64,000 nucleotides of DNA. Origin: a virus. Numbering within the stretch: the stretch's first letter is position 1; each line of letters opens with the position of its first letter. Location of the stretch: UHGV virus genome UHGV-0287696; one strand, given 5' to 3'. A program made the position numbers and the translations under genes. Of the stretch, positions 4,471 to 64,000 are shown piece by piece. The notes below the pieces were generated by a model. It saw only the letters and a list, made by a program, of their open reading frames with translations, searched no databases and was not told the origin of the DNA.

Positions 4471-4476
4471 TCCCTA

Positions 4477-4514
4477 CCCCTTACCCTATACGGTGTAAGG
4501 GGTACTTTTATTTT
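4477..4514 (+). terminator. intrinsic terminator
   Basis: Hairpin CCCCTTAC...GTAAGGGG followed by TACTTTTATTTT. Confidence 0.5.
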
Positions 4515-6013: not shown

Positions 6014-6049
6014 CCCTACTCCTCCGGGAGTAGGGTTAATTCTTTTTCC
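6014..6049 (+). terminator. intrinsic terminator (CCCTACTCC stem family)
   Basis: CCCTACTCC-TCCG-GGAGTAGGG followed by a T-rich tract. Confidence 0.6.
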
Positions 6050-6618: not shown

Positions 6619-6629
6619 AATAAAAGCTA

Positions 6630-6661
6630 CCCTACTCCCGAAGGAGTAGGGTAATCTTTTT
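6630..6661. terminator. bidirectional terminator (CCCTACTCC stem family)
   Basis: CCCTACTCC-CGAA-GGAGTAGGG between convergent genes, T-rich on both sides. Confidence 0.6.
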
Positions 6662-9653: not shown

Positions 9654-9696
9654 CCCTCCTGTACCCATTCGTGGTACAGGAGGGTCTTTCTTTTTA
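9654..9696 (+). terminator. intrinsic terminator
   Basis: 12-bp stem CCCTCCTGTACC / GGTACAGGAGGG followed by TCTTTCTTTTT. Confidence 0.6.
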
Positions 9697-9739: not shown

Positions 9740-10474
9740 ATGACCTACCCAAAAATTGTCACCCCGTACACACCGACGCTGGTTATTGGCGCTGATGCTG
9801 AAACCAAATCATTACGTCCCGATGCTTATCTGTTAAGTGCAGGTTTAGTGGCTTTTGACGTCCCTACATTGAAAATGGTAGGTTCCTCATACATCAGGAT
9901 CGATCCTAACGATCCTAAAGCAAAAGCCATTTTCCACGAAGACCCACAAACCGTTGGTTGGTGGGAAGGTAAAGGCGAACCCGAATACGCACCGTCTCGT
10001 GAAGCCTATGCGGAAGCATGGGGTGGGACAACAGCATTGCCAGACGCGCTGTGGGCGATGCAAAAATGGCTCGGGGAGATCACCGCAAAACATGAGTTTG
10101 TGATTACCATGCGTGGTCCTGACTTCGATGCGCCGATTTTCATGAACGCATTCGCACAATGTGATATTCCGCCAGGGAAGTTCCGTAAATTCAGTGCACT
10201 GGATAGCGATCGCACCGCAGAACGTTTAGCCTTTGCATTTGGGTTCGAGCCTGACCTAACCGTAGAGCAAATTTACTGGACACGCGGTAAGCCCGCTTTT
10301 GAGCACCACGCAATGTGGGATGCAGCAAAAGAAGCCTACACCACGGCACGTATTTACCACCTCGCTTTGGTCACTCGCCAATACGGGTTTGAACGCGCCA
10401 AAGCCTGTCACGAAGAACTGAAAACGGGCGAGTATGTTGCGCCGCAGATTCGTGATCAATTAACCAGGGATTAA
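9740..10474 (+). CDS. DEDDh-type 3'-5' exonuclease (DnaQ/DexA-like)
   Basis: Exo I-like LVIGADAETKS and Exo III-like HHAMWDA motifs. Confidence 0.5.
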   Translation: MTYPKIVTPYTPTLVIGADAETKSLRPDAYLLSAGLVAFDVPTLKMVGSSYIRIDPNDPKAKAIFHEDPQTVGWWEGKGEPEYAPSREAYAEAWGGTTALPDALWAMQKWLGEITAKHEFVITMRGPDFDAPIFMNAFAQCDIPPGKFRKFSALDSDRTAERLAFAFGFEPDLTVEQIYWTRGKPAFEHHAMWDAAKEAYTTARIYHLALVTRQYGFERAKACHEELKTGEYVAPQIRDQLTRD

Positions 10475-10476
10475 GA

Positions 10477-13981: not shown

Positions 13982-13983
13982 TC

Positions 13984-14508
13984 GTGGATATTTTAATTCA
14001 ACTTCGTAAGAAAACAACCATTGCCACACCGATAGCGCTAGAGGAGAAAATCTCTGGCGCGGTTGCACGCAAGCTCTGTGGTGCTCATGGCTTTAGCGAC
14101 CATCAGGAGCGGGTCGTTACTGTCGCCACATTACACAACTTACGACACACAGTACATTACTGTTTAGTTGACAACGTCACCATCACTCTTGATGATAACG
14201 TAAATGTCGACCAACTGCGACGCGAAATTGTCCACAAGATCGAGGCTTACAATAGACGTTTCGATCGGGCGTGTGCACGTTTAACTAATGACGAGGCACT
14301 ACGAAAACGTTTGAAACTTGAAATTGAGTATGCGGCGCAACGTTACGGGATTGGCGGTACCGAACCGTGCCTGACTGAACAAGAAATCACGTTAGCAATC
14401 GAGGTTTATACCACTCTCTGCTGCGCCATCCTAAAAGAGACCAACCACGAAATTACAAAAGCGTTGTTAAACACCGCAGACAAAATCACCCCAATTTTAG
14501 GACAATAA
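13984..14508 (+). CDS. hypothetical protein
   Basis: GTG start 2 nt after the upstream stop; AAGGAG upstream. Confidence 0.4.
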   Translation: MDILIQLRKKTTIATPIALEEKISGAVARKLCGAHGFSDHQERVVTVATLHNLRHTVHYCLVDNVTITLDDNVNVDQLRREIVHKIEAYNRRFDRACARLTNDEALRKRLKLEIEYAAQRYGIGGTEPCLTEQEITLAIEVYTTLCCAILKETNHEITKALLNTADKITPILGQ

Positions 14509-14509
14509 A

Positions 14510-14998
14510 ATGAACGTAAATGATATTATCAATCTTAGTAAAAGTGATATTGTGCACGAATTTCTCAATCATGGTGCGCGTGTAAGAAAAGAAATTGAAG
14601 AAAAGTTGACCCCAATGGTTGCTTCCACTCCTTGGATGGCAGGATACGCCGCTGCCTACTTCAGTTGCCAGAGCGGAAAAGCATACATAGCTAACCTGTT
14701 TGATTTCTTCAATCCATCAAACGACCACATAACAGAAACAGACGTTCGACAACGCCTTCGCGATTGCCGGTATCAGTTCTTAAGAAATGTTACTGATGCG
14801 TACAATTTAGAGCAATTTCCTACACCGATTGTTCCCTATACAGAACCGGAATGGGAAAATTTTTATAGACGAATTTGGATTGGTGGGTCTTACGTGGCAG
14901 ATATAATGGAAATCATCGAACGTAGCGAAAACCAACTTGCTCTGCAACTATGGGAGTGGTTAAAAGCCAATTATCCTGATTACGTCAAAATCGACTAA
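14510..14998 (+). CDS. hypothetical protein
   Basis: Coupled ORF; terminator follows. Confidence 0.4.
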   Translation: MNVNDIINLSKSDIVHEFLNHGARVRKEIEEKLTPMVASTPWMAGYAAAYFSCQSGKAYIANLFDFFNPSNDHITETDVRQRLRDCRYQFLRNVTDAYNLEQFPTPIVPYTEPEWENFYRRIWIGGSYVADIMEIIERSENQLALQLWEWLKANYPDYVKID

Positions 14999-15004
14999 TA
15001 CACA

Positions 15005-15036
15005 CCCTAGCTTCGGCTAGGGTTACTTTATTTTTA
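15005..15036 (+). terminator. intrinsic terminator
   Basis: CCCTAGC-TTCG-GCTAGGG followed by TTACTTTATTTTT. Confidence 0.55.
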
Positions 15037-15057
15037 ACCATTTTAGGAGAATAAACC

Positions 15058-15984
15058 ATGTATTTGTACAAAAGTAAAAAAGTAAAAGGTATTAAAGACT
15101 GCCTTAGACAAATGGGGTGTCAGCATCTAGAAAATGTCATGGAAGAAAACCGAATAAAGGAAAATCCTGTCTCGAAATGGATAAAAAAGAATCGTAACCA
15201 TTTAACCAATACCTTTATACCCTACGACGCTGAGTTAGGTCTCAAAGATCCCCGTTCCCTTCACGCACAAACATTAGCAATTGGATGGCTATACGGTGGT
15301 GCTTCCTTAATATCCAACCAAGCACTTAGAGAACTTGTTTTCGAAACTGAGATGCCCAGTAAATTCCCTGAAGAATGGTTGGACTTTATTCCTACTTGGA
15401 CTGTGGCAATCGACGTAGGTAAAGAGGATGAGACTTTCTTTCTCGGCTATCGAAAAAACGGGAAGAGAAGGTTTATTATAATTGCTACAAATACTGATTA
15501 CGGGTTAACAGAAGGCGTTACCACAATTGCCACTTGTTCGTTAGAGCTTCGTAGTGCAGGAAACGGGCTTGTGGAAATCGACTATGCCGACGGTGTGGAG
15601 AACGAACAAGAAAAGATGCTATGGTTATCTCTGGCCAAAGCCGCTACTTCGATGATATTTCTGTGCACGCTAATCCCGCCCAATTACAGGGAGTCTTTTA
15701 ATGATATTAAGTTCAAGGAAATCAAAAAGAACGGTAGTATTAGTTACGACGTTAAACCTCGTGAACGCGATGTTAAGATAGATATCACGCCAGGACAAGT
15801 GAATTATCTAAAAGGGTTTAACACTGACTTGAAAACCATGCAGGGTATCAAACATGCTAAGGCTGCCCACATCCGTCGCGCACACTGGCGCAGATATTGG
15901 GTCGGCCCTAGAAATGGTGAAAGAAAAAGAAAACTTTGTTGGATTCCACCTACATTTGTCCGTGGCTACGTACCCCACAATTAA
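15058..15984 (+). CDS. hypothetical protein, tandem paralog A (C-terminal HIRRAHWRRYW motif)
   Basis: AGGAG upstream; shares GW.YG and C-terminal AAHIRRAHW.R.W.G blocks with the next gene. Confidence 0.5.
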   Translation: MYLYKSKKVKGIKDCLRQMGCQHLENVMEENRIKENPVSKWIKKNRNHLTNTFIPYDAELGLKDPRSLHAQTLAIGWLYGGASLISNQALRELVFETEMPSKFPEEWLDFIPTWTVAIDVGKEDETFFLGYRKNGKRRFIIIATNTDYGLTEGVTTIATCSLELRSAGNGLVEIDYADGVENEQEKMLWLSLAKAATSMIFLCTLIPPNYRESFNDIKFKEIKKNGSISYDVKPRERDVKIDITPGQVNYLKGFNTDLKTMQGIKHAKAAHIRRAHWRRYWVGPRNGERKRKLCWIPPTFVRGYVPHN

Positions 15985-16008
15985 GCTAAAGTGTTTAGGA
16001 GTATTAAA

Positions 16009-16908
16009 ATGACAACGAATAATAGACTTTACGGGAAAGCGCTAAGACGCATGAGCGAACAAATAGAAAAGGCACACCAAACAATTCACGGATTAGATCA
16101 GTGCCGCTTTATTCGGTTCATTAACGAGCATAAACGTCAAATACCCGTAACGTTTATACCAGTTAAAGATCCGACCTATCGTGAGTATGGCGTTACCGAA
16201 CAGATCCCCAGACTGATTAAGCAGTCTCTGGGACTAGGATGGCAATACGCTGCTGTTGAAATCATCTCGGATGAAGAACTGATGGCGCTCTTAGCAAAAA
16301 CTGAGAGACTAAAAAATATCCCGTACTTCTGGATAGAAACCATCCCATCATTTACTTTCTCGGTTACTGTAAATCTCGACGAAAGTCCAATCACGTTATT
16401 TATCGGAAGACGTCTTTACGAAGGTGAAGAAGTTCTCTTTGTGATGTCATGCGAAGAACATGACGAGTCGGTATACATGGAGTTTGAGATTTACACGATC
16501 GATAAAAGTAATGATGATTTCGTGGAGTTAAAGCCGCTCCTTACTTCGGTTAAGGAGAATCAACGACTACTCGACGCGGTCTACATCGGGCTATATCTTT
16601 CATCACGAATTAAGCGAACCGAACGCGAGAAGAAAGAATTTCGCGGAAGGTCCATTCGTTATGTTCCTGATACAGAAATTCGCCCACGTAGTGAAGCAGT
16701 CGTTTTAGATGTAAGTCCGGTACAATGGGAAGATATAGAGCAGCAACGCAAGGAAGGACACGAGGTTTGTTTGGCGATTTATTGTGCCGCACATATCCGT
16801 CGTGCGCATTGGAAGCGTGTATGGTGTGGTAAAATGTCAGAAATGCGCTGGCGCGAATGGCGATGGATAGCGCCGAGTTACATTTCTGGATTTTATCGTG
16901 GGAAATAA
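16009..16908 (+). CDS. hypothetical protein, tandem paralog B (C-terminal HIRRAHWKRVW motif)
   Basis: AGGAG-tattaaa-ATG at 16009 (ORF track starts at an upstream GTG, 15991); paralogous to the previous gene. Confidence 0.5.
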   Translation: MTTNNRLYGKALRRMSEQIEKAHQTIHGLDQCRFIRFINEHKRQIPVTFIPVKDPTYREYGVTEQIPRLIKQSLGLGWQYAAVEIISDEELMALLAKTERLKNIPYFWIETIPSFTFSVTVNLDESPITLFIGRRLYEGEEVLFVMSCEEHDESVYMEFEIYTIDKSNDDFVELKPLLTSVKENQRLLDAVYIGLYLSSRIKRTEREKKEFRGRSIRYVPDTEIRPRSEAVVLDVSPVQWEDIEQQRKEGHEVCLAIYCAAHIRRAHWKRVWCGKMSEMRWREWRWIAPSYISGFYRGK

Positions 16909-16926
16909 ATAGTTTACCCCTAGACC

Positions 16927-16966
16927 GTGTGGTCTAGGGGTAACTTTACTTTTTTATTTTTTGTTT
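16927..16966. terminator. bidirectional terminator
   Basis: CCCCTAGACC-GTGT-GGTCTAGGGG between convergent genes. Confidence 0.55.
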
Positions 16967-17709
16967 GCCTTAAGCGCTTTTAAGCGTTCGGCAGTAACGT
17001 TCAGGCATTCGATTAACTCGTTAACCTGTTTCATGAACAGACCAAACAGCTCCACCCAATCGGATGCAAAATCTAACATCATCGTCAGTTCTTTTGCTAC
17101 ATTCGGATGAATGTTTTGTTCAGACAAGATTTCCGACGTAGTGCGAATGGACTCGATTGACTTGTCGATGTTCGTCCGTAAACGTTTCGTAATTTCAACG
17201 TTCAGAGCTTTAGCGCGATTGAACGCAACGTCAATCTCAGACGCGCTGTGGTACGTCTTCTCAATTGGTCGCTGGTCAATAACGTTATTAGTGTACGATT
17301 TCGCTAATAAGTTAACCAGGTCTTTCGGGTTAACATTACGTAACGGCAAATTAACGTTTTTGTAACGGAAACCAATCGGTAATGACAGTACCCCCACATC
17401 ATGTGTAAGGGCCGAAAGTTGTTTATCGACCGGCAGCAGAATACCTGTATAGATGTTTTGTAGTGAACTCCATACGGATTCTAAGCGGTTCAAATGATCC
17501 ATCACGTAGGTATTAAACCCAGGTGGAACGATAACCAACATTCCCGCAAAGTGTAGGAATTTTTCTTGTTGCATCCACTTGGAAACGTCCGACATCTCGT
17601 CATAAGTGGTTAATGCAATCTCTTGTTGAGGGCCGCTAAACCCTTTCGGTAAGATTGCAGACGCTTTAGCGGCGAAGCTAGATAACGCTGCAAGTGGATT
17701 TACATTCAT
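16954..17709 (-). CDS. hypothetical protein
   Basis: Minus-strand ORF with GAGG upstream; convergent with the upstream plus gene across a bidirectional hairpin. Confidence 0.45.
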   Translation of the reverse strand: MNVNPLAALSSFAAKASAILPKGFSGPQQEIALTTYDEMSDVSKWMQQEKFLHFAGMLVIVPPGFNTYVMDHLNRLESVWSSLQNIYTGILLPVDKQLSALTHDVGVLSLPIGFRYKNVNLPLRNVNPKDLVNLLAKSYTNNVIDQRPIEKTYHSASEIDVAFNRAKALNVEITKRLRTNIDKSIESIRTTSEILSEQNIHPNVAKELTMMLDFASDWVELFGLFMKQVNELIECLNVTAERLKALKANKK

Positions 17710-17807
17710 TCTAAAACCTCGGATTATAAGTCAGGGTTACATAGTAAAGTCTTTTTACAGTTCACCCAAACCTTATGACCGAGACTCTTCCATAAAGGTA
17801 AAGCTCG

Positions 17808-18107
17808 ATGAAAATCAAATTACTGACTCGAAACACCACACCGCGTTTAGAACCGGAAATTTATCTGACGCCTGTTAAAAAAGGTCAGAACGGTAAACCT
17901 ATTCAAGTTGGAAAAGTCTTGAGCGTAACGTCGTGCCCGAGCGGTAAACGTGTTATGGAACTGGAAATTGACGAGCGTAATAAACGCCGTTTCGAGTCTA
18001 TTGAAAACCCTTATCCTGAAAATGCGGAAGAAGTTACTGAGTGGGTAGAGACCTACTTTGAATTCTGGCACAACCGCCGTCTTCTTCTTCCGACCAAGAA
18101 TCGTTAA
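17808..18107 (+). CDS. hypothetical protein
   Basis: 99-aa ORF directly upstream of the recombinase gene. Confidence 0.35.
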   Translation: MKIKLLTRNTTPRLEPEIYLTPVKKGQNGKPIQVGKVLSVTSCPSGKRVMELEIDERNKRRFESIENPYPENAEEVTEWVETYFEFWHNRRLLLPTKNR

Positions 18108-18122
18108 TTATCGGAGCGCTAA

Positions 18123-19619
18123 ATGGCAGGCCCAACTAAGCAAGTTATCGGTGAAGTAATTCGTCCACGTTTTAACGTTTACACCATCATGGATCATGCC
18201 TTAGGTAACTACGAAAAAGGTGAAGATGGTTTGTACTACCTTAACGGTGGTTTTGCCCACATCATGGGTTTCGCAGGTCGCGGTAACACCTTTAAATCCA
18301 CCTTGTTAGATTTCTGTATCTTCCAAATCCTGCAACGTTATAAAGCAGAGTGGGGTTCTAAGTACGATACAGAAGTGTCCGCTGCCCTCGATCGTTTAGA
18401 AACTGGGTACATCTCTGCCATGAACGCCAACGGTATCGACGACGGAACATCCGTACTGGAGCTTATCCACGAAGGTCGTTATAACCTGGTCGGTTCTGAC
18501 GTAATGCCTGGGGAACAGTATTACAGTGATTATATTCGTGATGAAGTTGAAAAACGCTTCAAACAGTATATGTCTGGTAAAACCCGCGTAACACCGTTCC
18601 CCGATCCGGTTCGTCGCAAGTTAAAAGAAATCCTGGACCCCTGGCTTTATTCTATCGACTCCCTGTCAGAGTGGCATTCCAGTTCACTGGAAGACAAGCA
18701 CGCAAAAACGGATATTGGGGATTCTGATCAGAACATCCTGAACGCCCACGACGCACTGCAAAAATCGAATATGATGAGCCGCTGGCCGTCTGCGTTTGCA
18801 CGCGGTGGTTTTTACATGGGCTTCGTGGCACAGATGGCCGATGACTCTGGGAAAGCGATGGCGGGTGGCCGACAGGCACAAAAAGCAAATGCGAAAATTC
18901 TCGACGACGCCAACGACGATTTAAAATTCGCAGGTATTCCTCGCCGTCAGCTTAGCTTTTTAACAAACTCTTTTATCGTCGCGACGAAATCAGGGGAACT
19001 GAAGAAAGACCAGAGCTATAACGCACAGACCGGTGTTAACGAAGAACTTTATCCGACGTCACGTTCTAAAGCGATGAATGCGTCGGTAAACGACTTGAAG
19101 ATTATCACCTTTACCCAGTATCGTGCGAAGGGTGGTCACACCGGTGTGAAATTTCAGATGATCTTCTCTCAGGAAATGGGTCTGTTATATCACCTGAGCC
19201 TGTGGCACTATTTAAGTGACACGCTGAAGAAGTCAGACTTTGGTTTCACATCAAGCGGTAGTGGCGGCTCCATCAAAGAACTGGACATTCTACCTGGTGT
19301 GAAATTCCAACGCACGACAATCCGTGATATGATTTCTGATAACGCCCGCTTACGTCGCGCTTTAGAAATCACTGCGGCAATTGCGTATATGCAAAACAAC
19401 TACCATCGTCTTGAAATGAAGTATCATCTCAGCATGGGTGAGATTTACAAACTGATTGACGAAAAGTGGGACTGGAATGAAATTCTGGATAACACGGTAG
19501 AATACTGGATGTTTAAAGACCAGGAAACCAAAGGCGGTAAACGTACACTGACTGCACGTACCATTCTGGGTATGGCTGTCGATGGACTAGAACCGAAGTT
19601 CCTGACGAAAAAGAAATAA
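18123..19619 (+). CDS. RecA/UvsX-family recombinase
   Basis: TIMDHALGN...GG...IMGFAGRGNTFKSTLL parallels the UvsX region around its P-loop (recalled as ...AGPSKSFKSNFGL...); Walker-B-like LYSIDSLSEW. Confidence 0.5.
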   Translation: MAGPTKQVIGEVIRPRFNVYTIMDHALGNYEKGEDGLYYLNGGFAHIMGFAGRGNTFKSTLLDFCIFQILQRYKAEWGSKYDTEVSAALDRLETGYISAMNANGIDDGTSVLELIHEGRYNLVGSDVMPGEQYYSDYIRDEVEKRFKQYMSGKTRVTPFPDPVRRKLKEILDPWLYSIDSLSEWHSSSLEDKHAKTDIGDSDQNILNAHDALQKSNMMSRWPSAFARGGFYMGFVAQMADDSGKAMAGGRQAQKANAKILDDANDDLKFAGIPRRQLSFLTNSFIVATKSGELKKDQSYNAQTGVNEELYPTSRSKAMNASVNDLKIITFTQYRAKGGHTGVKFQMIFSQEMGLLYHLSLWHYLSDTLKKSDFGFTSSGSGGSIKELDILPGVKFQRTTIRDMISDNARLRRALEITAAIAYMQNNYHRLEMKYHLSMGEIYKLIDEKWDWNEILDNTVEYWMFKDQETKGGKRTLTARTILGMAVDGLEPKFLTKKK

Positions 19620-19626
19620 ATAGGCT

Positions 19627-19648
19627 CGGGTAGGGTAAACCCTACCCG
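19627..19648 (+). other. stem-loop without U-tract immediately upstream of an RBS
   Basis: CGGGTAGGG-TAAA-CCCTACCCG followed directly by AGGAG and the start of the next gene. Confidence 0.4.
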
Positions 19649-19663
19649 ACCTAAGGAGTCATC

Positions 19664-19963
19664 ATGCGTTATCAAACGGAGATTGTGGAACGCTTAAGTG
19701 AAGGATTGGCAAGTGTTAATTTAGAAACAGCGGCCGAATTTCGTGAAGCCTTCACTCACCCGTTTCCCGATCTGGAATCCTTTTGTTTAAAGGTCGCTGA
19801 GTATTACTCGAATCTATTAGTACGTTACGGGTATGCGCCAGTACGTTCCGAACTTCCTGAAAACACGGAAGCTATCAGCTACTGGATTGACCTGCTTGAA
19901 GCAGAAACGTTATCCAATTTACGTAAGGCGGTAGACAATGAAACTCGAACCAGCGCGGCGTAA
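19664..19963 (+). CDS. hypothetical protein
   Basis: ORF with AGGAG upstream. Confidence 0.35.
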   Translation: MRYQTEIVERLSEGLASVNLETAAEFREAFTHPFPDLESFCLKVAEYYSNLLVRYGYAPVRSELPENTEAISYWIDLLEAETLSNLRKAVDNETRTSAA

Positions 19964-20606
19964 AAAGGCGGAAGCCTACGCCTTACAAATCTTAAAGTTG
20001 GTAGACCCTTCTGGCATCAATGCTGAAGCCGCGAAGAAAGCCTTCGCACGAATGACCGACGAACAGTTTAACCGACTTCGTAACGGTTTGCCTATTTACA
20101 ACCCGGTGGGAAGTAAAGTCGAAATTGACCACCTGCGCAATATCGAGGTGTGCAAAATTCTCGGGGTAAACCTGGAGCAACGACTCTGGTTAACAGAACC
20201 AAAAACGGGTGTCTATCACCGTACTCGTTACCCTCACTTAGTCTTACGCTTGCCTGTCCGTCGTCAGACACAGATGCAAGAAAAGAAAATGGCGGTTGCG
20301 AAAAACGACAAAGTTCGCGATAAGCTCTCCGGTCAAGTTGTCGGACCTTCCAAAGCATCTGGGGTGTCCTTCCCAGAGGCATACATCATGTATTCCGATG
20401 GCCACGACTGGACACTGAAAGAGTTCCTGTGGGCGCGTGGTGGTAACGACGCACTACAACGTGCTTTCTATCAATCGCTGCGCCAAACCGGTAAAGGGCG
20501 TATTGATTTGCCTGGAGCGGAGCGAACGAGTTCTAAAGCAACGCGTACGTGGTCAGCGTACCTAAAAGCGATGCATATCGGTAACAACATAGGCCATCCG
20601 TCATGA
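19938..20606 (+). CDS. hypothetical protein
   Basis: ORF overlapping the previous gene by 26 nt. Confidence 0.4.
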   Translation: MKLEPARRKKAEAYALQILKLVDPSGINAEAAKKAFARMTDEQFNRLRNGLPIYNPVGSKVEIDHLRNIEVCKILGVNLEQRLWLTEPKTGVYHRTRYPHLVLRLPVRRQTQMQEKKMAVAKNDKVRDKLSGQVVGPSKASGVSFPEAYIMYSDGHDWTLKEFLWARGGNDALQRAFYQSLRQTGKGRIDLPGAERTSSKATRTWSAYLKAMHIGNNIGHPS

Positions 20607-21325
20607 GATTATCTCGGCGTTTCTTAATCGATATTGATACGTTATTTGATACGCGTTTAGGTTGGGTAAAAGCCGTTAAACCTGAAAGCTTAGCATTGCT
20701 AGACTACGACGTTTATCGTCGTCGCTATACAGAAGCTTGGGCTGGCGTACTCGGATTTGAAAAATGGGATGAAGAGTGGCGGAAGCGGGATAAGCGCGCG
20801 TTGATTAATGCGCAACCTACTGAATTATTGGCAACAATGAAAAACGAATTCGAGTGTATGTTGCTTGAAATCGAAATGCATTCGCCAATTGAAAAACCCA
20901 CTCTGACCATCAATACGTGGCCTTATACGGATTTAACAGGCGAAGAACTTCAAGCCTTTTTGAATCTGTTTCGGATGTACTACAATAACGTACAAGTTGA
21001 ATTGGTGTCTTGGTCGTTAGAAGATCTCACACCGGGGAGATTGTCGTTGGCGTGGGATTGCTGGATAATGTACGATTGGTTCGAGTGGATTAAGCTTAAT
21101 GCTACGCACTTGAAAAAACCGATTCCGAGCTTTACCATCACACACCCTGCCATGCTCACACCAGAACTGACCGGAGTGTTGGTTGAACAAATCAAACAAG
21201 ACGGCGTTAACCCGTTTAAGGAACATATCCGGTTTATGGCAGAGTGGGTCGGTGTCGACCCACGAGATGCCGCTTTATTTAGTCTTGCTCGCCCTGCTCA
21301 GGACGTGCAAACGCCGCCGTCATAA
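20603..21325 (+). CDS. hypothetical protein
   Basis: ATGA start-stop overlap with the upstream gene. Confidence 0.4.
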   Translation: MRLSRRFLIDIDTLFDTRLGWVKAVKPESLALLDYDVYRRRYTEAWAGVLGFEKWDEEWRKRDKRALINAQPTELLATMKNEFECMLLEIEMHSPIEKPTLTINTWPYTDLTGEELQAFLNLFRMYYNNVQVELVSWSLEDLTPGRLSLAWDCWIMYDWFEWIKLNATHLKKPIPSFTITHPAMLTPELTGVLVEQIKQDGVNPFKEHIRFMAEWVGVDPRDAALFSLARPAQDVQTPPS

Positions 21326-21743
21326 TGGACTTAACATCGATTTGTTCGCCTACTGGTGCCAGCTCCCCTTCTGTTACTTCAACATCAGGAATAACAGGAA
21401 CGGGGGGCTGGTAGCCCTGGGTTTCTTCGATTTCCTCATCGTGACGACGTATTTTGATATTACCGCGTTGCATGAGGATGCTATTAAGTGCATTCGCCAA
21501 ATCTTGGTTAGCTTCGCTGTTTTTCTGTGCAGCAGCGACGCGACGTTTGGAAATGATTTGTTTATCGACGTCGTTAAGCAAAGACCCCAGCCGGTCTACC
21601 GTTTTCAAGTCTTTGTGTGCTTGAGGATCGTCTAAGATGAGATTCACAATCCGTACACGGGCTTGTTGCGTTTGGCGGAGAAGCGATTCTTCGTCGTCCA
21701 CATCTCCATCAAACGCCTGATATTTCACTTCTTCGTCAGCCAT
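21279..21743 (-). CDS. acidic hypothetical protein (154 aa)
   Basis: Lone minus-strand ORF filling a 490-bp gap between plus-strand genes; GAGG upstream; strongly net-negative composition with acidic termini. Confidence 0.4.
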   Translation of the reverse strand: MADEEVKYQAFDGDVDDEESLLRQTQQARVRIVNLILDDPQAHKDLKTVDRLGSLLNDVDKQIISKRRVAAAQKNSEANQDLANALNSILMQRGNIKIRRHDEEIEETQGYQPPVPVIPDVEVTEGELAPVGEQIDVKSIMTAAFARPEQGEQD

Positions 21744-25970: not shown

Positions 25971-25976
25971 CACCTA

Positions 25977-26014
25977 CCCTACTCCTGACTAGGAGTAGGG
26001 TATTTTCATTTTTT
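25977..26014 (+). terminator. intrinsic terminator (CCCTACTCC stem family)
   Basis: CCCTACTCCT-GACT-AGGAGTAGGG followed by TATTTTCATTTTTT. Confidence 0.6.
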
Positions 26015-31143: not shown

Positions 31144-31151
31144 ATAAAAGT

Positions 31152-31200
31152 ACCTACCTCCTTTCGGAGGTAGGTAGACTTTCTTATTTTTTTTTCTTTT
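31152..31200. terminator. bidirectional terminator (ACCTACCTCC stem family)
   Basis: ACCTACCTCC-TTTC-GGAGGTAGGT with a long T tract; between convergent genes. Confidence 0.6.
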
Positions 31201-33970: not shown

Positions 33971-33990
33971 GGGGGTAGTTTCCTACCCCC
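33971..33990 (-). terminator. hairpin terminator or attenuator downstream of the giant gene
   Basis: GGGGGTAG-TTTC-CTACCCCC; on the minus strand it is followed by GTTTTTTAGA, just before the next minus-strand gene. Confidence 0.45.
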
Positions 33991-42782: not shown

Positions 42783-45700
42783 ATGCTGCTCATTAAACAG
42801 TTTAACCAACGCTTCTCGGTGCGTAAAACTGACGAGTTTGGTAATCCGAGGATTATCCCGCTCGAGAAGCTACAGATACCACGTGGTTCTGTACTCCATG
42901 TCATTGATCTCGACCAGGTGGTATTAGCGCCACCTGCAACACTCGAGATTATTCAACCGTTAGAAAAACCTGCACAGGTTCGTCACCACTTTAAATTACC
43001 GGAAGACGGTATTAGCGGTCATCCGCGCAACAAACCTGTTCAGGGGCAAGAACGTGCTATCTTTGCTTACCACCGTGCAAACCGCCCGATGCGTCGTCTT
43101 ACCTCAGACGATCTGGTTCGCAAAGACTTAAAAGTTCTCCTGGTCGAGAACTACACACCAATGCTATCGCACTACTACTATCCTGACACCCAGTTAGCCT
43201 GGTACGATAGACTGCGTAACATCCAACTGTTGATGATTAACCAGTTCAAATACGACACGCAAGAATACATGCGTCAGAACTATTTCGTTATTGAACTGGG
43301 TTCGACTCTACCTTCGTTCCAGAAGTTTCAAACAACCTATAACGACCGCGTTAAGAGCAAGATTGAGAAGTTCCAGGACTTCAACTTGCTGTGGTTATTG
43401 GAGTTGTTTGCTTGGGCTTATGGAAAACAATCCGATTCCCTATTCTCGGGAATGGATTTAACTCAGCTGTCACGAATGAACTTTATCTTCACCCACAACA
43501 CGGGCTTTACGTCCATGAACATGGGTGTTGTAGAGAAAATGCGTAAGTCGTCCGGCGGTCGTTTAAGTGATGACCAAATGGCCAGGATGTTCTACCGTAC
43601 GCTGGTGCGTGTAATGACACAAGCACCGTCTAACGCGTACGAAGCTGAATTCCTAACGCCTGAAGGCGACGAGCGTGTTTTCCTTAAAGACGTCGAAGAA
43701 GAAACCGTTGATGTTGTCGACGATGACGATGTTGTTAATGACGCTGTGGTGGAATCCGATAACACCTTCGATGAAAAAGAAGACGTTGTTATTGAAGAAC
43801 CGAAGGAAGACGTCAAACCGACGACCATCGTCGTCGAGAAAGTCATTCCGCATGACGAGATTATTAAACAGGAAGCACAACGCTTAGCTGAAGCGGGCCG
43901 CTTAAGTTCTAAAGCATATCAGTTCCTGTCAGAATCGTCTAAACGTTTCGTTCAGCTACCTAACCCGTATAACCCGAAAGAAACCTACGGGGAAGCACTG
44001 ACTGTTCACGAGAAAGATATCGTCGTTAAAGCCGAGCCGAAAAAAGTTCAGCGGCTTGTTACCGATGAAGGGTGGGCAGAGAACGTCACCGACCAGATGG
44101 TGAAACAATACAACCAGACCATGATGACCAAAGACGTACTGGCGGCGGTCGCCAGTTCACAACGTTTGGGTCTGGCGGTTCACAACCACACGGTGGAAAA
44201 AGAAGTTTCTGTTACAGGAACTATCGAGCACCACACCTTACGTGTTCAGCCAGTCGGTGGTGAGCCAACAACCGTTCGCTTCTCTATCCCAGGCTTGACC
44301 GAGGACGGTACTTGGGTCGCTAATGGTGTCGAATACACCATGCGTCGCCAACGTGTGGACTTACCGATTCGTAAGGTTGCACCGGATACTGTCGCACTGA
44401 CTACCGCTTACGGTAAAAACTTTGTCCGTCGTAGTGATAAAGTCGCAAACGATTACGGCCGTTGGTTAACCAACGCGATTATCACACGCGCCGTTGACCC
44501 GACAAACACCGAAGTCACCGATGCACGTTTAGCAAATGTGTTCGATCCTACGCAACATCTGCCTCGTCAGTATACGGAGATTGCACGCCGTATTGCCAGC
44601 TTTAATGCGAACGGCTATATGTGGAACTTCGACTACAAAGAAGCCGTTAACTTCTTTAACGACGAGCAACTCAGAGACGCCGATGCTGCCAAACTTCTGC
44701 CAGTGGCGAAACGTCCGCGTAGCGAAACAATCCTGGCAATGGATGACAAATCCATGCTTTACGGTGTGAACGGAAACAAAGTTGAACCAGTGGGAACCAT
44801 CGCAGAGGTATTGGGCTTTAATAACCAGAAAGTGCCTCGCGAAATGACCGAGCTGTCTTTGATGGGTAAATCTTTGTCGCTTGGTTTTATCTTCTCGTTC
44901 TATCTTGGACTCCAGGGAATGTTGAAACATTTCGGTATCCAGTACGAGTTGGTTCCTACAGGACAGCGTGTTGATAAGAATGCCTACGACAGTATTATTC
45001 GACTACAAGACTGTAAACTTTTAGTTACTTGCGATAACGATCAGCAGAGGATGATTCTGCATGGTTTGGATCGCTATCTCAAACACCTGGTTGCTTATAC
45101 CGAATCAGAAGCAGACCGCGAAGACATTTACCTGAACTTATTACGTGAAGCAGATGGCCTAACGCCACGGTACATCAACGAGCTGAAACAGATGCGGTCC
45201 GCGTTTGTTGACGACATGCACGCACGTATCCTCAGGAAAATGGGTGAGCCGGAAACCTTTATTGGCTTGCTGGAACGTTCTAACGAACTGTTACAAACTG
45301 ACCACTCTTTACCAGAGATTAACGGCGATGAAATGATGTTCTTAGGAAATCAGAGGATTGCCTACCACATCTATACTGCGATGGTCAGAGCGATGCGTAA
45401 CTACAATAACGCACCGGGCAGTAACCGTAAGTTCGAACTGACACAAGACATGGTTTGGGGTGCAATTAACTCCGACCCGTCGGTACTTTTGGCACCAGGC
45501 GCTAACCCTATCCAGTCAATTAAAGAAAAAGACGTTATTACGATGGGGGGTACAGGTGGTCGTAATCGTAAAACGATGGTCTACCACACGCGTGAGTTCC
45601 AACCCAGTGATATCGGGATAGTCTCGGGTAATACCGTAGATAACGGCGACGTAGGGATTACTGCTTTCGTCACCAATAACCCACGTTTTGACACCGTTGA

Positions 45701-46949
45701 CGGTACCACGTTTAAGCGTGAAGAGAAAACCCCGAAACCAAGCGATACCCTTTCGTTTATTGACGGGTTAGTACCCGATACGTTAATGGACGATGCAAAA
45801 CGTCAAAACTTCGTTGGGATTCAGTTAGGTTCTGCCACCAGTTGTAATGGGGCAACCACAACCCCGTATCGTACTGAACAGGAGAAATTCGTCGCACACC
45901 GTACTTCGGTGAAACATGCACGCGTTATTGATAAAGCAGGTAAGATTACTGGTCTGTCGAAAGACCACATTGAAATTACGTACGAAGATGGAAGTAAAGA
46001 AGCCTTTCCTCTAGGGCGCTGGTTCGGCCCCCACGAAGGTACCTTCTATCCGCACACCTTGGTAACACGCTGGAAAGCCGGTGATAAGCTCCCGGCCGGA
46101 GCAGTGATTACGTACAACGAGCAACACTTTGAACCTGATATTTACGATCCTACTCAGGTTTCCTGGAAAAACGGGGTGCTGGCCACCGTTGCTTTATTAG
46201 AAGCTGAAGAAGTTATCGAAGACTCCAACGCAATTTCTGAACGGTTCGCGAAGAAAATGGTGGGGCAGGTAACAAAGCTGAAAGAAGTGACGATTAACAG
46301 CAACCAGATGCTTTTGGAAATCGTGAATGAGGGCGACCACGTAGACGTCGATACAATCCTATGCACGTTTACTGACGACTTGACGGGCGATATGAGTGCC
46401 TTTAGTCAGGAAGCAGCCGCAACGTTGCAAAGTTTAAGTTCGTACGCACCTCGTGCAGGGGTACGTGGTATCGTGGATAAAATCGAAGTGGTGTATCACG
46501 GTGAAACCGAAGACATGACGCCAAGTCTTGCTGAGCTGGTGCGTAAATACGACAGAATTCGTCGTAAAGCCGCACTGGCAGTCGGACGCGGTGATCCGGT
46601 TTCAGGCAGTGTAAACGGCGACTACCGTGTCGAAGGTGTACCCTTGGCCTTTAACTCACTTTGTGTTCGATTCTTTATTACACACGACGTTGAGATGGCC
46701 GCTGCGGATAAGATGGTTATTGCTAACCAGCTAAAAACCACCGTACAAGAAGTCATGTACGGCGACAACAAAACAGAGGATGGTGATGACCTGGACGTGT
46801 TGTTCGGTCGCGATTCCGTCGATGCGCGTATCGTAGGTTCAATCCAACGTATCGGTACCGCGAATGCTGTAGGTGAACAAGCCGGGATTCTCATCGGGCG
46901 TATACTCGATGGGGAGGCTGTGCCTGATTTACCCGCGACACTTAAATAA
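42783..46949 (+). CDS. large hypothetical protein (1388 aa)
   Basis: Long ORF in the same frame as the upstream ORF, separated from it by TAA-GGC-TAA; internal acidic run; function unknown. Confidence 0.5.
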   Translation: MLLIKQFNQRFSVRKTDEFGNPRIIPLEKLQIPRGSVLHVIDLDQVVLAPPATLEIIQPLEKPAQVRHHFKLPEDGISGHPRNKPVQGQERAIFAYHRANRPMRRLTSDDLVRKDLKVLLVENYTPMLSHYYYPDTQLAWYDRLRNIQLLMINQFKYDTQEYMRQNYFVIELGSTLPSFQKFQTTYNDRVKSKIEKFQDFNLLWLLELFAWAYGKQSDSLFSGMDLTQLSRMNFIFTHNTGFTSMNMGVVEKMRKSSGGRLSDDQMARMFYRTLVRVMTQAPSNAYEAEFLTPEGDERVFLKDVEEETVDVVDDDDVVNDAVVESDNTFDEKEDVVIEEPKEDVKPTTIVVEKVIPHDEIIKQEAQRLAEAGRLSSKAYQFLSESSKRFVQLPNPYNPKETYGEALTVHEKDIVVKAEPKKVQRLVTDEGWAENVTDQMVKQYNQTMMTKDVLAAVASSQRLGLAVHNHTVEKEVSVTGTIEHHTLRVQPVGGEPTTVRFSIPGLTEDGTWVANGVEYTMRRQRVDLPIRKVAPDTVALTTAYGKNFVRRSDKVANDYGRWLTNAIITRAVDPTNTEVTDARLANVFDPTQHLPRQYTEIARRIASFNANGYMWNFDYKEAVNFFNDEQLRDADAAKLLPVAKRPRSETILAMDDKSMLYGVNGNKVEPVGTIAEVLGFNNQKVPREMTELSLMGKSLSLGFIFSFYLGLQGMLKHFGIQYELVPTGQRVDKNAYDSIIRLQDCKLLVTCDNDQQRMILHGLDRYLKHLVAYTESEADREDIYLNLLREADGLTPRYINELKQMRSAFVDDMHARILRKMGEPETFIGLLERSNELLQTDHSLPEINGDEMMFLGNQRIAYHIYTAMVRAMRNYNNAPGSNRKFELTQDMVWGAINSDPSVLLAPGANPIQSIKEKDVITMGGTGGRNRKTMVYHTREFQPSDIGIVSGNTVDNGDVGITAFVTNNPRFDTVDGTTFKREEKTPKPSDTLSFIDGLVPDTLMDDAKRQNFVGIQLGSATSCNGATTTPYRTEQEKFVAHRTSVKHARVIDKAGKITGLSKDHIEITYEDGSKEAFPLGRWFGPHEGTFYPHTLVTRWKAGDKLPAGAVITYNEQHFEPDIYDPTQVSWKNGVLATVALLEAEEVIEDSNAISERFAKKMVGQVTKLKEVTINSNQMLLEIVNEGDHVDVDTILCTFTDDLTGDMSAFSQEAAATLQSLSSYAPRAGVRGIVDKIEVVYHGETEDMTPSLAELVRKYDRIRRKAALAVGRGDPVSGSVNGDYRVEGVPLAFNSLCVRFFITHDVEMAAADKMVIANQLKTTVQEVMYGDNKTEDGDDLDVLFGRDSVDARIVGSIQRIGTANAVGEQAGILIGRILDGEAVPDLPATLK

Positions 46950-46956
46950 TCTCGAG

Positions 46957-46975
46957 GGGTGGGTCGCTCCCACCC
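46957..46975 (+). other. weak stem-loop after the 1388-aa gene
   Basis: GGGTGGG-TCGCT-CCCACCC with only a weak T tract. Confidence 0.3.
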
Positions 46976-46996
46976 TTGTAAACTCCGGAGAAGAGA

Positions 46997-51942: not shown

Positions 51943-51980
51943 GGCTAGTCTATTCGATGAATAGACTAGCCCACCTTTAT
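51943..51980 (+). terminator. intrinsic terminator
   Basis: Perfect 13-bp stem GGCTAGTCTATTC / GAATAGACTAGCC, loop GAT, then CACCTTTATTTT. Confidence 0.6.
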
Positions 51981-54223: not shown

Positions 54224-54252
54224 GGCGGTCTTATGACCGCCTTATTTTTTTT
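54224..54252 (+). terminator. intrinsic terminator (second of a tandem pair)
   Basis: GGCGGTC-TTAT-GACCGCC followed by TTATTTTTTTTT. Confidence 0.6.
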
Positions 54253-54833: not shown

Positions 54834-54877
54834 CTACCTACCTCCTTGACGGAGGTAGGTAAACTTATTTTTTTTGC
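54834..54877. terminator. bidirectional terminator (CTACCTACCTCC stem family)
   Basis: TACCTACCTCC-TTGAC-GGAGGTAGGTA with T tracts on both strands, between convergent genes. Confidence 0.6.
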
Positions 54878-61314: not shown

Positions 61315-62955
61315 ATGGCCTTAACAACCGACATTATTAATAAGGATCGCGGGTTCCGTGTATGGCGTCCTGAAGAACTCTATGCGCCGGAACGCCCAAC
61401 CGGATACGTACCGAACCCGAAAGATCTGATCGTTAACGATATCACCTCCGGTTTCGATATCGTCATAAGCGTTAACTACGCCAAACCGTCGTGGGAAACC
61501 GAACCGTGGGGCGGTGTAGGGGTGGCTAATCAAGACGGTCGTCTGAACGGACACTACCCACTGCGTAGCGATAAATATCGCGTCTACGTGGATTCTACGA
61601 AGCTCCCGGCAACAATGGTGTTAGATAACGCACTCACCTTTGAAGGACCGGATGTGGACGGGGTGCGCATTTTCCGAGGCAGTAAAGTTGACGACAGTGC
61701 GGAAATACTCTCTGGCTACTACAAAGACGGTAAATTGAAATACACTTACTTACCGGTCCAGACGATTTCTGTCGAGGGTGCAGAGCGTGTCGTTAAACAA
61801 ACGTTACCTGGCGCTTGCTTAGCTGAGGTCGAGAACGGCGAAGAATGTATGTTCGCTGTTTACTCCGACGTCGGTAACGTGGTGCAAATCGGTCACGCAC
61901 ACATTATCAAAACGAACCTGGTAATGCCGCAAGAAACGCCAGCACGCACGGTGTTAGGTATTAAGTTAGTGTCACCGTTCTTGGTAGACAACGACGGCAC
62001 CACACTGACGCTCCCGATCAACATGCCAATCGAGTCTATACCGCTTTGGTGTGATGTTGTTTACAGCGATGGCACAAAACGTCTACCTATCGACCAGGCT
62101 CGTGTTAAATTCAACGGCTTACGTAACGCAGGTTCACACGACACGTTCTACATCGCTTCTAACTCAGGTAACACGCTACCTTGCGTACTGAGCTATAAGT
62201 TATCCAGAGGTGAAACTTACGGAGGTACCGATGTCGTAGGTGACACCATTGTGAAAAACTATACGGCGGTAACAGAGCAGGTCGACGGTGCCTACAGCAT
62301 GAAACTTTTCGTTGTGCCGAGATGGCTGGATGCCACACGCGGTTATCGTCTGGATTTCTTGCTGTATAACCTGACACGCGGTAAAGTTTACGACGCAACC
62401 GCACACGTTAACTACACCACGGGCACGACCTTCGATCCGTTACTGATGGGTGTTAAGCAACGCCTTAACGTTCAGGTCGATATCAGTAAAGTAGACAGTA
62501 AATTCCGTGCGTTTATTCAGTCTCAGTCATTCGCTATTACGCTTGTGAACCCAGGTAACGAGCTGAACTCGAACTTCATTCTGGAATACCTCCCAGACGG
62601 TATGAAGTATGGGGAAAACGTGTGGGCGGAATTTAAATACTCCAACGTCAATTATTCTGAAATCGACGTCAGTAACAAAGTGGCCTCTAAGGCGGAATGG
62701 TTGAAGCTGTTGTACGAACCGATTTATCCGTTGTACGACCGTCGTAATGAATCTGAGCCACCTGAACCAACACACTTCGAAATCCACGTCGGGGGTAAAG
62801 TTTACACCTATAGCGTAGATGAGTGGTTGGATAAAAAGGTTATCGACTACCGCGTACCACTAGACGCTCCGCTAGTGATTCGTTGGATACGTCGCACACC
62901 AACAGATACGTTAAACTTAGCCGCGTCGCCAATGTTGGCGCACCACATCGAATAA
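61315..62955 (+). CDS. hypothetical structural protein (546 aa)
   Basis: Starts 2 nt after the upstream stop. Confidence 0.45.
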   Translation: MALTTDIINKDRGFRVWRPEELYAPERPTGYVPNPKDLIVNDITSGFDIVISVNYAKPSWETEPWGGVGVANQDGRLNGHYPLRSDKYRVYVDSTKLPATMVLDNALTFEGPDVDGVRIFRGSKVDDSAEILSGYYKDGKLKYTYLPVQTISVEGAERVVKQTLPGACLAEVENGEECMFAVYSDVGNVVQIGHAHIIKTNLVMPQETPARTVLGIKLVSPFLVDNDGTTLTLPINMPIESIPLWCDVVYSDGTKRLPIDQARVKFNGLRNAGSHDTFYIASNSGNTLPCVLSYKLSRGETYGGTDVVGDTIVKNYTAVTEQVDGAYSMKLFVVPRWLDATRGYRLDFLLYNLTRGKVYDATAHVNYTTGTTFDPLLMGVKQRLNVQVDISKVDSKFRAFIQSQSFAITLVNPGNELNSNFILEYLPDGMKYGENVWAEFKYSNVNYSEIDVSNKVASKAEWLKLLYEPIYPLYDRRNESEPPEPTHFEIHVGGKVYTYSVDEWLDKKVIDYRVPLDAPLVIRWIRRTPTDTLNLAASPMLAHHIE

Positions 62956-62965
62956 ATATAACAAG

Positions 62966-62989
62966 CCTCCTACCCGAAAGGGTAGGAGG
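62966..62989 (+). other. stem-loop without U-tract immediately upstream of the terminase RBS
   Basis: CCTCCTACCC-GAAA-GGGTAGGAGG followed directly by GAGGAG and the ATG at 63002. Confidence 0.4.
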
Positions 62990-63001
62990 TGAGGAGTCTG
63001 T

Positions 63002-64000
63002 ATGATACTACGTGAATCGGACTGGCGTTATTATCCAGGCGCTATTGTTGACGATAAAACCACAAACAAATCGTTTATCAAGTTTGCAAATATCCTAAAA
63101 AAGCTGGGTGTAAAGCACTACTATATTCATCTCGCCTTACATAACCCTTTACTGCAAGGGGTCGATCCTTTTGACGAAAACCTAACGGACGAACAGAAAG
63201 CGTATATCGCCATCGAGTGTGCCGAAAACCCTTGGTACTGGTTTCGAGAGTGTGTCAGGGTACCTGCGGACGGTATGAAATACGGGTCGCCGTTCCGTAT
63301 CGACCGTGGTAACTTTTCGATGTATTGGATTTTCTTCAACAACATCGACGCCGCTGTCGAATTCCTCCGTCAGCACGGTAAAACCGTCGGGATGAGCGGA
63401 TTACTATTGTGGTTAATTCGGTTTCTGGAAAACTCTCGTACGATTCTTATCACAAAAGGCCCGGCACTGCGTGAAGAAACCATTAACAAACTTAAGCAAC
63501 TACGTAACGGTCTACCGTCGTACTTGTGGCCAGCACATCCAGACGATCCAGATAACCGCGAAACTTTTGCGTGTTTAGCCCAGGGTAACAAACTGATTAC
63601 GGGTATCGGCCAAAACGACCCAGAATCTGCTAACGGTATCGGTCGTGGACTTACCGCTGGTCGTCTGTTCTCGGACGAAGGACCCTTTACCAAAAACGTT
63701 CACCACATTCTACCGGCAGCGCTGGCATCCGGTACAGCGGCACGTCGTATTAACGAAGCGGAAGGTGTTCCTTACGGTAACGTATTCGCAACAACCCCGG
63801 GTGACTTAGCGACAGAAGAAGGCAAGTACATGTACGAGCTGATGACGTCAGGGATTATGTGGGATGAGCGCTATATCGACATTCCAACCCGTAAACAGCT
63901 CATTGACATCATTCGTTCTAACTCCACGGCAGAAGTCCCACGTATCATGTTCTACGTGAAGTACAACCACCGCCAGCTCGGTACCAGTGATGAGCAGTTA
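63002..64000 (+). CDS. terminase large subunit, N-terminal ATPase part (gene continues past window end)
   Basis: ATG at 63002 with GGAGGTGAGGAG upstream; frame open to the window end. LRQHGKT and ILITKGPALREETINKLKQLRNGLP parallel T4 gp17 (SRQLGKT ... ILAHKGSMSAEVLDRTKQAIELLP) as recalled. Confidence 0.65.
   Translation, partial: MILRESDWRYYPGAIVDDKTTNKSFIKFANILKKLGVKHYYIHLALHNPLLQGVDPFDENLTDEQKAYIAIECAENPWYWFRECVRVPADGMKYGSPFRIDRGNFSMYWIFFNNIDAAVEFLRQHGKTVGMSGLLLWLIRFLENSRTILITKGPALREETINKLKQLRNGLPSYLWPAHPDDPDNRETFACLAQGNKLITGIGQNDPESANGIGRGLTAGRLFSDEGPFTKNVHHILPAALASGTAARRINEAEGVPYGNVFATTPGDLATEEGKYMYELMTSGIMWDERYIDIPTRKQLIDIIRSNSTAEVPRIMFYVKYNHRQLGTSDEQL

Follow-up and report, generated by a model that had tools for sequence, protein, structure and literature searches.

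The virus genome UHGV-0287696 contains, in the 64,000-nucleotide (nt) stretch analyzed here (the window), two very stable hairpins (site 1 and site 2) that stand directly in front of ribosome-binding sites (RBSs) and have no run of T on the sense strand. These hairpins do not form a new class of element and are best filed as a U-tract-less variant of the known terminator and intercistronic hairpins of jumbo phages. Our leading interpretation, in which we place about even confidence, is that both sites, together with a third one (site 3), are U-tract-less members of the phage's own terminator-hairpin class and work within operons as leaky elements that step expression down. By megablast and tblastn comparisons, the window belongs to a jumbo myovirus from the SPN3US/Asesino group; it shares ~75% nucleotide identity with Salmonella phage SPN3US (84–87% for the terminase protein) and hardly differs from the metagenomic contig IMGVR_UViG_3300029126_000001. 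As family-level knowledge rather than as something shown for the window contig, Chimalliviridae possess their own virion and non-virion multisubunit RNA polymerases (RNAPs) and carry out transcription within a phage nucleus, where it is not coupled to translation (PMC7598289, PMC12908238).

At both sites, a 10-base-pair (bp) stem with 70% GC and a 4-nt loop starts 6–10 nt past the stop codon of the upstream gene and is followed after 2–4 nt by a strong Shine–Dalgarno sequence (SD), with the ATG lying 14 nt (site 1) or 12 nt (site 2) past the stem. A preliminary description of this DNA had reported this arrangement of SD and start codon in place of a T run, and it gave exact coordinates for site 2; for site 1, the hairpin it placed at 19627..19648 is real but was drawn one base short at each end (Table 1). 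The site 1 stem can be extended to 19621-19653 with one bulge, and the site 2 stem is lengthened by a G62965–U62990 wobble pair (62965..62990). The folding energies of −24.5 kcal/mol at site 1 (z = −6.2 versus dinucleotide shuffles) and −23.5 kcal/mol at site 2 (z = −6.6) rank the two stems, which have the words CCTACCC / GGGTAGG in common, with the most stable ones of the window (−22 to −24.5 kcal/mol). The 10 nt 3′ of the site 1 stem (CCTAAGGAGT) contain two T and the site 2 tail (TGAGGAGTCT) contains three. In agreement with the earlier view that these are unlikely to be simple intrinsic terminators, the sense strand has no T-run at either site, does not reach five T in the 8 nt that begin 0–2 nt past the stem, and yields no plus-strand call by a consensus scanner. 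The flanking cistrons are co-directional and separated by only 44 nt (site 1) and 46 nt (site 2), and the stretch between stem and ATG is taken up by the SD, which the predicted fold leaves unpaired at both sites. The AU-rich single-stranded sequence AAAUAAAUA lies just 5′ of the hairpins.

Hairpins of this quality are far more frequent in the window than expected by chance. When the criteria were a perfect stem of 9 bp or more, a GC fraction of at least 0.5, and a loop of 3–8 nt, the window contained 11 hairpins, nine of them intergenic, versus a mean of 0.34 (maximum 2) in 100 dinucleotide shuffles. A junction-by-junction census based on open reading frame (ORF) gene calls revealed ~16 strong hairpins, each beginning 4–10 nt past a stop codon and built of a 7–13 bp GC-rich stem with, in most cases, a 4-nt loop. 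About 13 of them are followed by a T-rich tail with the pattern yTTTaTTTTT. Three have none, namely site 1, site 2, and a hairpin at 46957-46975 (site 3), and these occupy the shortest such gaps (44–47 nt); sites 1 and 2 share the post-stop position and the orthologous conservation of this class and lack its tail. The window's four convergent-junction hairpins are T-rich on both strands, and in the window and its SPN3US counterpart taken together, 9/9 convergent-junction hairpins have a T-rich tail on at least one strand, usually both. Several T-tract hairpins of the window also have an SD and a start codon within ~30 nt; because so many of them precede an RBS within this distance, such placement reflects the compactness of the genome and is not peculiar to the two sites. 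A further minus-strand T-less hairpin with an 8-bp GC-rich stem (21244-21263) lies 16 nt past the stop codon of the gene at 21279..21743, inside the overlapping convergent plus-strand gene 20603..21325; it was left out of the T-less count since its SPN3US counterpart is merely a weak 6-bp stem.

Conservation in related genomes, which had been proposed earlier as a check on these hairpins, was found at both sites. For site 2, the structural-gene/terminase junction has a strong T-less hairpin in all 11 SPN3US-group genomes examined, which represent at least five genera. Its stem and loop read CCTCCTACCC-GAAA or GCAA in the window clade, CCTCCTCTCC-TTCG in Asesino-like genomes, CCTCCACCCC-TTCG in SPN3US, CCTCCTCCCC-GGTC in Huxley, CTCCTCCTCCCC-GAAA in ChrisDB, GTACCCCCGGCC-AAAA in Kwan, and AGGTCTAGGGG-GCAA or TTGC in CR5 / Derbicus. 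In nine loop-anchored sequences, both sides had changed in 7/12 pairs while 91.7% of the cells pair, and the observed paired fraction or covariation score was reached by 0/500 shuffles and by no slid register. CR5 and Derbicus were left out of these pair counts because MAFFT shifted both out of register; their stems are unrelated in sequence and perfectly paired. The sense-strand loop is GNRA or UUCG in 8/11 orthologs, a sign that selection acts on the sense RNA.

The pre-terminase hairpin can be followed beyond the SPN3US group. The distant phage Goslar has a 13-bp T-less hairpin directly adjoining GGAGGAG before its terminase gene, and in RAY the hairpin at this junction is followed by TGGTTTCACTTATG. 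The gene order near site 2 (a divergent tail sheath gene, three structural genes, and the terminase gene) equals phiKZ gp029 / gp028-gp027-gp026-gp025, and positional homology with the phiKZ hairpin, a comparison made for site 2, is borne out by the preserved synteny gp028-gp027-gp026-hairpin-gp025. The phiKZ gp026/gp025 junction (GCCCCCTAGG-TGGTT-CCTAGGGGGC, then TTTATAACG) combines a hairpin with TTTAT, the published terminator signature, and a 100-nt spacer with TATG, the late-promoter core, follows (PMC10914365; PMC7598289). The hairpin at the structural-gene/terminase junction is thus ancient, with the tail and the spacer missing in the SPN3US group and Goslar.

For site 1, a hairpin directly follows the UvsX-like gene in 13/13 relatives whose sequence reaches the junction, and the stems are unrelated (GGGTAGGG, GGCGGG, GTGGCGGG, GGGGCGG, GGGGTGG). 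Only SPN3US and two Asesino-like contigs have a T-tract here (TGTTTTTT, TTTTTATTGTT, TTTTGATTATT); it occupies ~8–11 nt between stem and SD, and the stem lies 21–25 nt from the ATG. The other ten relatives, among which are Machinavirus- and Wellingtonvirus-like contigs, have no T-tract, and their stem lies 12–14 nt from the ATG. The tract therefore behaves as an 8–11-nt indel at a fixed hairpin. The junction after a 2374-amino-acid gene displays the converse, with GTTTTTT in the window and a T-less hairpin in SPN3US. In 5/5 site 1 orthologs with a GGCGGG stem (from SPN3US, Machinavirus-like, and Asesino-like genomes), the sense-strand loop is GNRA or UUCG, and the occurrence of such loops at both sites points to a sense-strand function at the RNA level. 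Together, these results do not bear out the treatment of the two sites as a special class in the preliminary description: they have the same post-stop position as the T-tract hairpins and related stem words, the T-tract is variable at orthologous junctions, and a phiKZ hairpin of terminator type occupies the junction of site 2.

The loop of site 1 (window 19636-19639) was found reverse-complemented between near-identical relatives with unchanged arms (TAAT versus ATTA; TAATC versus GATTA), the hallmark of perfect inverted repeats that undergo small, hairpin-mediated inversions. The loop in the window, TAAA, is one base off the otherwise identical IMG/VR contig.

Site 3 follows an RNAP β′-like gene and is T-less in 10/10 relatives over several genera. 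Its stems covary (GGGTGGG, GGGCGGG, CAGACGGG), its TCGCT loop is invariant, and a conserved palindromic RBS region, AAAC..ACTCCGGAG, follows the hairpin (46956-46996). We also examined SPN3US as a whole, using a genome assembled from six stretches with crude ORF calls. Its convergent-junction hairpins had T-rich sequence on one strand or, more often, on both, with two marginal exceptions (a T-run within the stem and one weak hairpin). Its co-directional junctions had ~26 T-rich and ~10 T-less hairpins, the latter lying nearer the next start codon (median 25.5 versus 51 nt, one-sided Mann–Whitney p = 0.02). Since convergent junctions need efficient termination, the presence of T-rich tails there and of T-less hairpins at co-directional junctions, close to the next start, fits the view that the latter are leaky members of the terminator class.

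From these observations, we infer that the hairpin would fold in the sense-strand mRNA as it is made, a few nt past the upstream stop codon, and, without a U-tract, would halt only some of the phage-encoded RNAPs, serving as a leaky attenuator or pause site. Any 3′ ends arising at the hairpin, through termination or 3′-to-5′ trimming, would be shielded by the very stable stem, and the remaining transcription would read through into the next gene, the start of which lies 12–21 nt past the stem with no space for a promoter of its own. The net effect would be a fixed step-down in mRNA dose from the upstream genes (UvsX-like recombinase; virion structural proteins; an RNAP subunit) to the downstream ones (a small ORF and an RNAP fragment; terminase). 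The high stability of the two stems fits partial compensation for the missing U-tract, and the phage's own 3′–5′ exoribonuclease gene (described below) also accords with this interpretation. The preliminary description had also suggested that the hairpins set expression levels, which is plausible with respect to the relative levels of the neighboring genes. Its proposal of a factor-dependent (Rho-dependent) terminator is disfavored by transcription in a phage nucleus that is uncoupled from translation (PMC12908238).

It also agrees with the leading interpretation that, in phiKZ and 201phi2-1, transcript 3′ ends have been mapped at conserved hairpins, and canonical intrinsic terminators account for only 52/132 mapped 3′ ends in 201phi2-1 (PMC10914365; PMC11512511). 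The hairpins studied here resemble the terminator hairpins of these two phages in their stable GC-rich stem, ~4-nt loop, position just past stop codons, and family-like repeated stems (PMC10914365, PMC11512511), and the fact that most mapped ends of 201phi2-1 are not canonical intrinsic terminators is a further likeness. Site 2 (CCTCCTACCC-GAAA-GGGTAGGAGG) fits the phiKZ-type architecture of a C/Y-rich 5′ arm, a ~4-nt loop, and a G/R-rich 3′ arm, whereas the polarity of site 1 is reversed. The window, known from sequence alone, differs from phiKZ in that its sites have no TTAT or U-rich sense tail and do not match the phiKZ consensus, and in that the spacer before the next gene has shrunk to 12–14 nt, so that no downstream promoter is possible. 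With canonical intrinsic terminators, the sites share a GC-rich hairpin (at least 5 bp with a 3–8-nt loop), stable GNRA/UUCG tetraloops, and the post-stop position; they differ in having no sense U-tract and in being transcribed, as family knowledge suggests, by phage multisubunit RNAPs and not by the host enzyme (PMC7598289).

If this interpretation is correct, SPN3US-like operons would be punctuated by graded hairpins, with full T-tracts at unit ends and convergent junctions and T-less hairpins inside operons, where they would tune the dose of neighboring genes, for example many structural proteins versus little terminase. The gain or loss of an 8–11-nt T-tract between genera would then be a simple, evolvable dial, and its recognition would aid transcription-unit annotation in uncultivated jumbo phages. 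The junctions would also serve as concrete test sites for the termination requirements of phiKZ-family RNAPs.

Several observations weigh against the step-down interpretation. The literature searched contains no transcript 5′- or 3′-end maps for this phage or its SPN3US-group relatives. The phiKZ terminator consensus BCCYCCCCHWWDGGGRRGGBYTTATKYYGT had no match in the window with up to three mismatches, and site 1, with its purine-rich 5′ arm, has a polarity opposite to that of most terminators in the window. The shorter distance of the T-less SPN3US hairpins from the next start codon is in part a trivial outcome, as a T-tract takes up length of its own. In addition, cUUCGg loops were found in 16/26 T-rich hairpins at co-directional junctions of SPN3US versus 1/10 T-less ones (the one being the pre-terminase hairpin), and the T-less set is therefore heterogeneous; the terminator loops of the window are much more varied than those of SPN3US, whose T-tract terminators are dominated by cUUCGg. 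The invariant loop of site 3 suggests a specific recognition element and not a generic hairpin. Finally, the minus strand has T-rich sequence after both sites (tails GCCTATTTAT and CTTGTTATAT), and there the consensus scanner calls both as terminator-like.

It is possible, although unlikely, that in nucleus-forming jumbo phages, which transcribe with non-canonical multisubunit RNAPs in physical separation from translation, the hairpin-only elements mediate U-tract-independent 3′-end formation or attenuation or provide a structured signal directly beside internal start codons for phage mRNA-handling proteins. In this case, the pre-terminase hairpin, which has stayed T-less and adjacent to the RBS from the SPN3US group to Goslar, and the site 3 hairpin with its invariant UCGCU loop would be dedicated regulators and not weakened terminators; ChmC binds near internal start codons with no known sequence motif (PMC11077065). 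We consider it quite improbable that the sites are antisense or bidirectional terminators that mainly halt minus-strand transcription before it enters the upstream gene. The minus-strand calls agree with such a role, as do antisense tails with at least five T in 8 nt in 9/12 site 2 orthologs and the minus-strand gene 21279..21743, which has no T-tract terminator before site 1. Against it, these T-rich stretches mostly mirror, on the complementary strand, the TAA stop codon together with either conserved Lys codons at the C-terminal end or an A-rich 3′ untranslated region, the T-rich tail is absent in CR5, Derbicus, and Huxley, the GNRA/UUCG loops are on the sense and not the antisense strand, and in SPN3US the convergent junction downstream of the terminase gene is already served by a bidirectional terminator.

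A purely post-transcriptional stability element, with full read-through, is a less favored but appreciable alternative. In this case, the hairpin would block 3′-to-5′ exonucleases after endonucleolytic cleavage or, as a 5′-terminal stem-loop, would guard the downstream cistron from RNase E; the 5′-stabilizer variant, which is covered by the same judgment, supposes that the transcript is cut within the AU-rich sequence immediately upstream, which exposes the stem-loop at the 5′ end. Intercistronic stabilizer hairpins are established in bacteria, with malEFG repetitive extragenic palindromic (REP) sequences and Rhodobacter puf as examples. Like these stabilizers and like leaky intra-operon attenuators, the sites are stable hairpins between co-transcribed cistrons that leave no promoter space and need no U-tract, and by analogy with the stabilizers a higher dose of the upstream product would be expected; REP-type elements differ in being dispersed repeats, which the window hairpins are not, and the latter are positionally homologous to true terminators. 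The very stable stems, the GNRA/UUCG sense-strand loops, and the AU-rich sequence upstream all accord with a stabilizing role. The hairpin is also kept while the T-tract is gained and lost, and this retention argues for a conserved function independent of the tract. Moreover, the phage encodes an Rv2179c-like 3′–5′ exoribonuclease (9740..10474; Pfam PF16473, E = 2.5e-11), so 3′ hairpins could matter for the stability of phage mRNA; the adjoining gene (10477-11997) encodes an RNase H-domain protein (PF00075, E = 9e-21), and the SPN3US orthologs of the two genes are annotated as exoribonuclease and ribonuclease. On the other side stand the hairpins with terminator tails at homologous positions in relatives and phiKZ, and sequence by itself does not separate a stability element from partial termination.

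A translation-level element that insulates or tunes the adjacent RBS appears slightly less probable than an antisense terminator. At site 2, such an element would hide an extra SD-like GGAGG that is freed by the terminating upstream ribosome, resulting in coupling. The stem ends 2–4 nt before the SD, its distance to the ATG is nearly constant (9–14 nt in most relatives), the outer CCUCC/GGAGG pairs are kept at site 2 in Seoulvirus, Asesino-like, and Machinavirus genomes, and the functional SD is unpaired in the predicted fold. However, CCUCC/GGAGG is lacking at site 1 and in Kwan, CR5, and Derbicus, the T-tract orthologs keep the hairpin though it is 21–25 nt from the ATG, and the real SD is free whether or not the hairpin forms. 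We regard as least probable of all, with very little weight, a DNA-level element (an operator or a packaging or recombination signal by the terminase gene) or a functionless, decaying relic of a terminator. The perfect inverted repeats, the loop flips between near-identical relatives, which bespeak hairpin-mediated inversion of a DNA repeat, and the proximity of site 2 to the terminase gene could be read in favor of a DNA-level role. Nevertheless, the stems have been wholly replaced between genera with pairing kept, which leaves no conserved recognition sequence, the loop types differ between the strands as expected of RNA, and like hairpins occur at many unrelated junctions; covarying conservation over at least five genera speaks against a relic. 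The same stem turnover and sense-strand RNA tetraloops (GNRA/UUCG) disfavor a packaging (pac) or operator DNA site, including the protein-binding operator that had been proposed earlier.

Other known element types were also considered and rejected. T7-type RNase III hairpins are likewise intergenic stem-loops of a late phage operon just before an RBS, but the stems here, at most 10–14 bp with 4-nt loops, are too short: RNase III sites typically comprise ~20 bp of double-stranded RNA (about two helical turns) with internal loops. N4-type hairpin promoters are early promoters with 5–7 bp stems and 3-nt loops (PMC4496689), and there is no space for a transcript leader at the present junctions. 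The core of a phiKZ-type late promoter, T(−3)ATG(+1), would require TATG. In the window and a number of relatives, this word overlaps the start codon of the terminase gene, and in Huxley, CR5, and Derbicus it does not; the overlap is taken as coincidental because a transcription start there would remove the start codon.

The features discussed are listed in Table 1. In Pfam searches of the window, only the exoribonuclease and RNase H genes were matched and the genes flanking the hairpin sites had no match, for which reason the gene names are taken from the annotations of relatives. Matches to sigma-70-type promoters were fewer than in shuffled sequences (22 versus 34.8 ± 5.6 in 1-20000; 10 versus 24.0 ± 5.3 in 44001-64000), a depletion that fits a phage not dependent on the host RNAP.

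Table 1. Hairpins of sites 1–3, their flanking genes, and the T-tract hairpins of the window (aa, amino acids)
Feature	Position	Strand	Basis
Site 1 hairpin, perfect 10-bp stem TCGGGTAGGG / CCCTACCCGA, loop TAAA	19626-19649	+	sequence, RNA folding
Site 2 hairpin, 10-bp stem CCTCCTACCC / GGGTAGGAGG, loop GAAA	62966-62989	+	sequence, RNA folding
Site 3, T-less hairpin (G)GGGTGGG-TCGCT-CCCACCC(T), 21 nt before ATG 46997	46956..46976	+	census, relatives
UvsX-like recombinase (name from relatives), 498 aa, upstream of site 1	18123..19619	+	ORF list; stop TAA 19617-19619
99-aa ORF downstream of site 1, SD AAGGAG 19653-19658, ATG 19664	19653..19666	+	sequence
RNAP β-subunit fragment gene, after the 99-aa ORF	19938..20606	+	SPN3US annotation
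Virion structural protein, 546 aa, phiKZ gp026 position, upstream of site 2	61315..62955	+	stop TAA 62953-62955; synteny with phiKZ gp028-gp025
Terminase large subunit gene start, SD GAGGAG 62991-62996, ATG 63002	62991..63004	+	homology; gene continues past window end
RNAP β′-like gene, 1388 aa, upstream of site 3	42783..46949	+	ORF
T-tract hairpin, post-stop-codon class, tail CTTTTATTTT	4475..4504	+	census
T-tract hairpin CCCTACTCC-TCCG-GGAGTAGGG + TTAATTCTTTTT, next ATG 31 nt downstream	6014..6035	+	census, scanner
Bidirectional terminator hairpin, convergent junction, TACCCTACTCC...GGAGTAGGGTA	6628..6653	.	census, scanner, motif
T-tract terminator hairpin, 12 bp, −23 kcal/mol	9654..9684	+	census, scanner
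T-tract terminator hairpin, loop TTCG	15004..15023	+	census, scanner
Bidirectional terminator hairpin, convergent junction	16914..16943	.	census, scanner
T-tract terminator hairpin TACCCTACTCCT...AGGAGTAGGGTA	25975..26002	+	census, motif
T-tract hairpin	30252		census
Terminator hairpin, convergent junction, TACCTACCTCC...GGAGGTAGGTA	31151..31176	.	census, motif
Hairpin GGGGGTAG-GAAA-CTACCCCC + GTTTTTT, directly before next gene's RBS; SPN3US ortholog T-less	33971..33990	-	census
T-tract terminator hairpin, 13 bp	51943..51971	+	census, scanner
T-tract terminator hairpin, tail TTATTTTTTTTT	54224..54241	+	census, scanner
Bidirectional terminator hairpin, convergent junction	54835..54861	.	census, scanner, motif

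Among the T-tract hairpins of the window, terminator stems recur nearly verbatim with different loops, TACCCTACTCC at 6628 and 25975 and TACCTACCTCC at 31151 and 54835, and related stems (CTACCTACTCC, TACCCACTCCC) are found in SPN3US. These recurring stems are a family-specific terminator sequence motif that is analogous to that of phiKZ but different from it. Expressed as TACCYWVYYCC...GGRRBWRGGTA, the motif matches only 6628, 25975, 31151, and 54835 and neither site 1 nor site 2. An Rfam covariance-model scan of the whole window returned no matches at gathering score.

One further structure, of 45 nt (1957-2001, −19 kcal/mol), has an outer stem that pairs with the SD of the next ORF (CAGGAG). 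Its inner hairpin, CCTCACTATGAGTG.G.G, is kept in SPN3US between gp075 and gp074, and the structure could be a translational or start-site element.

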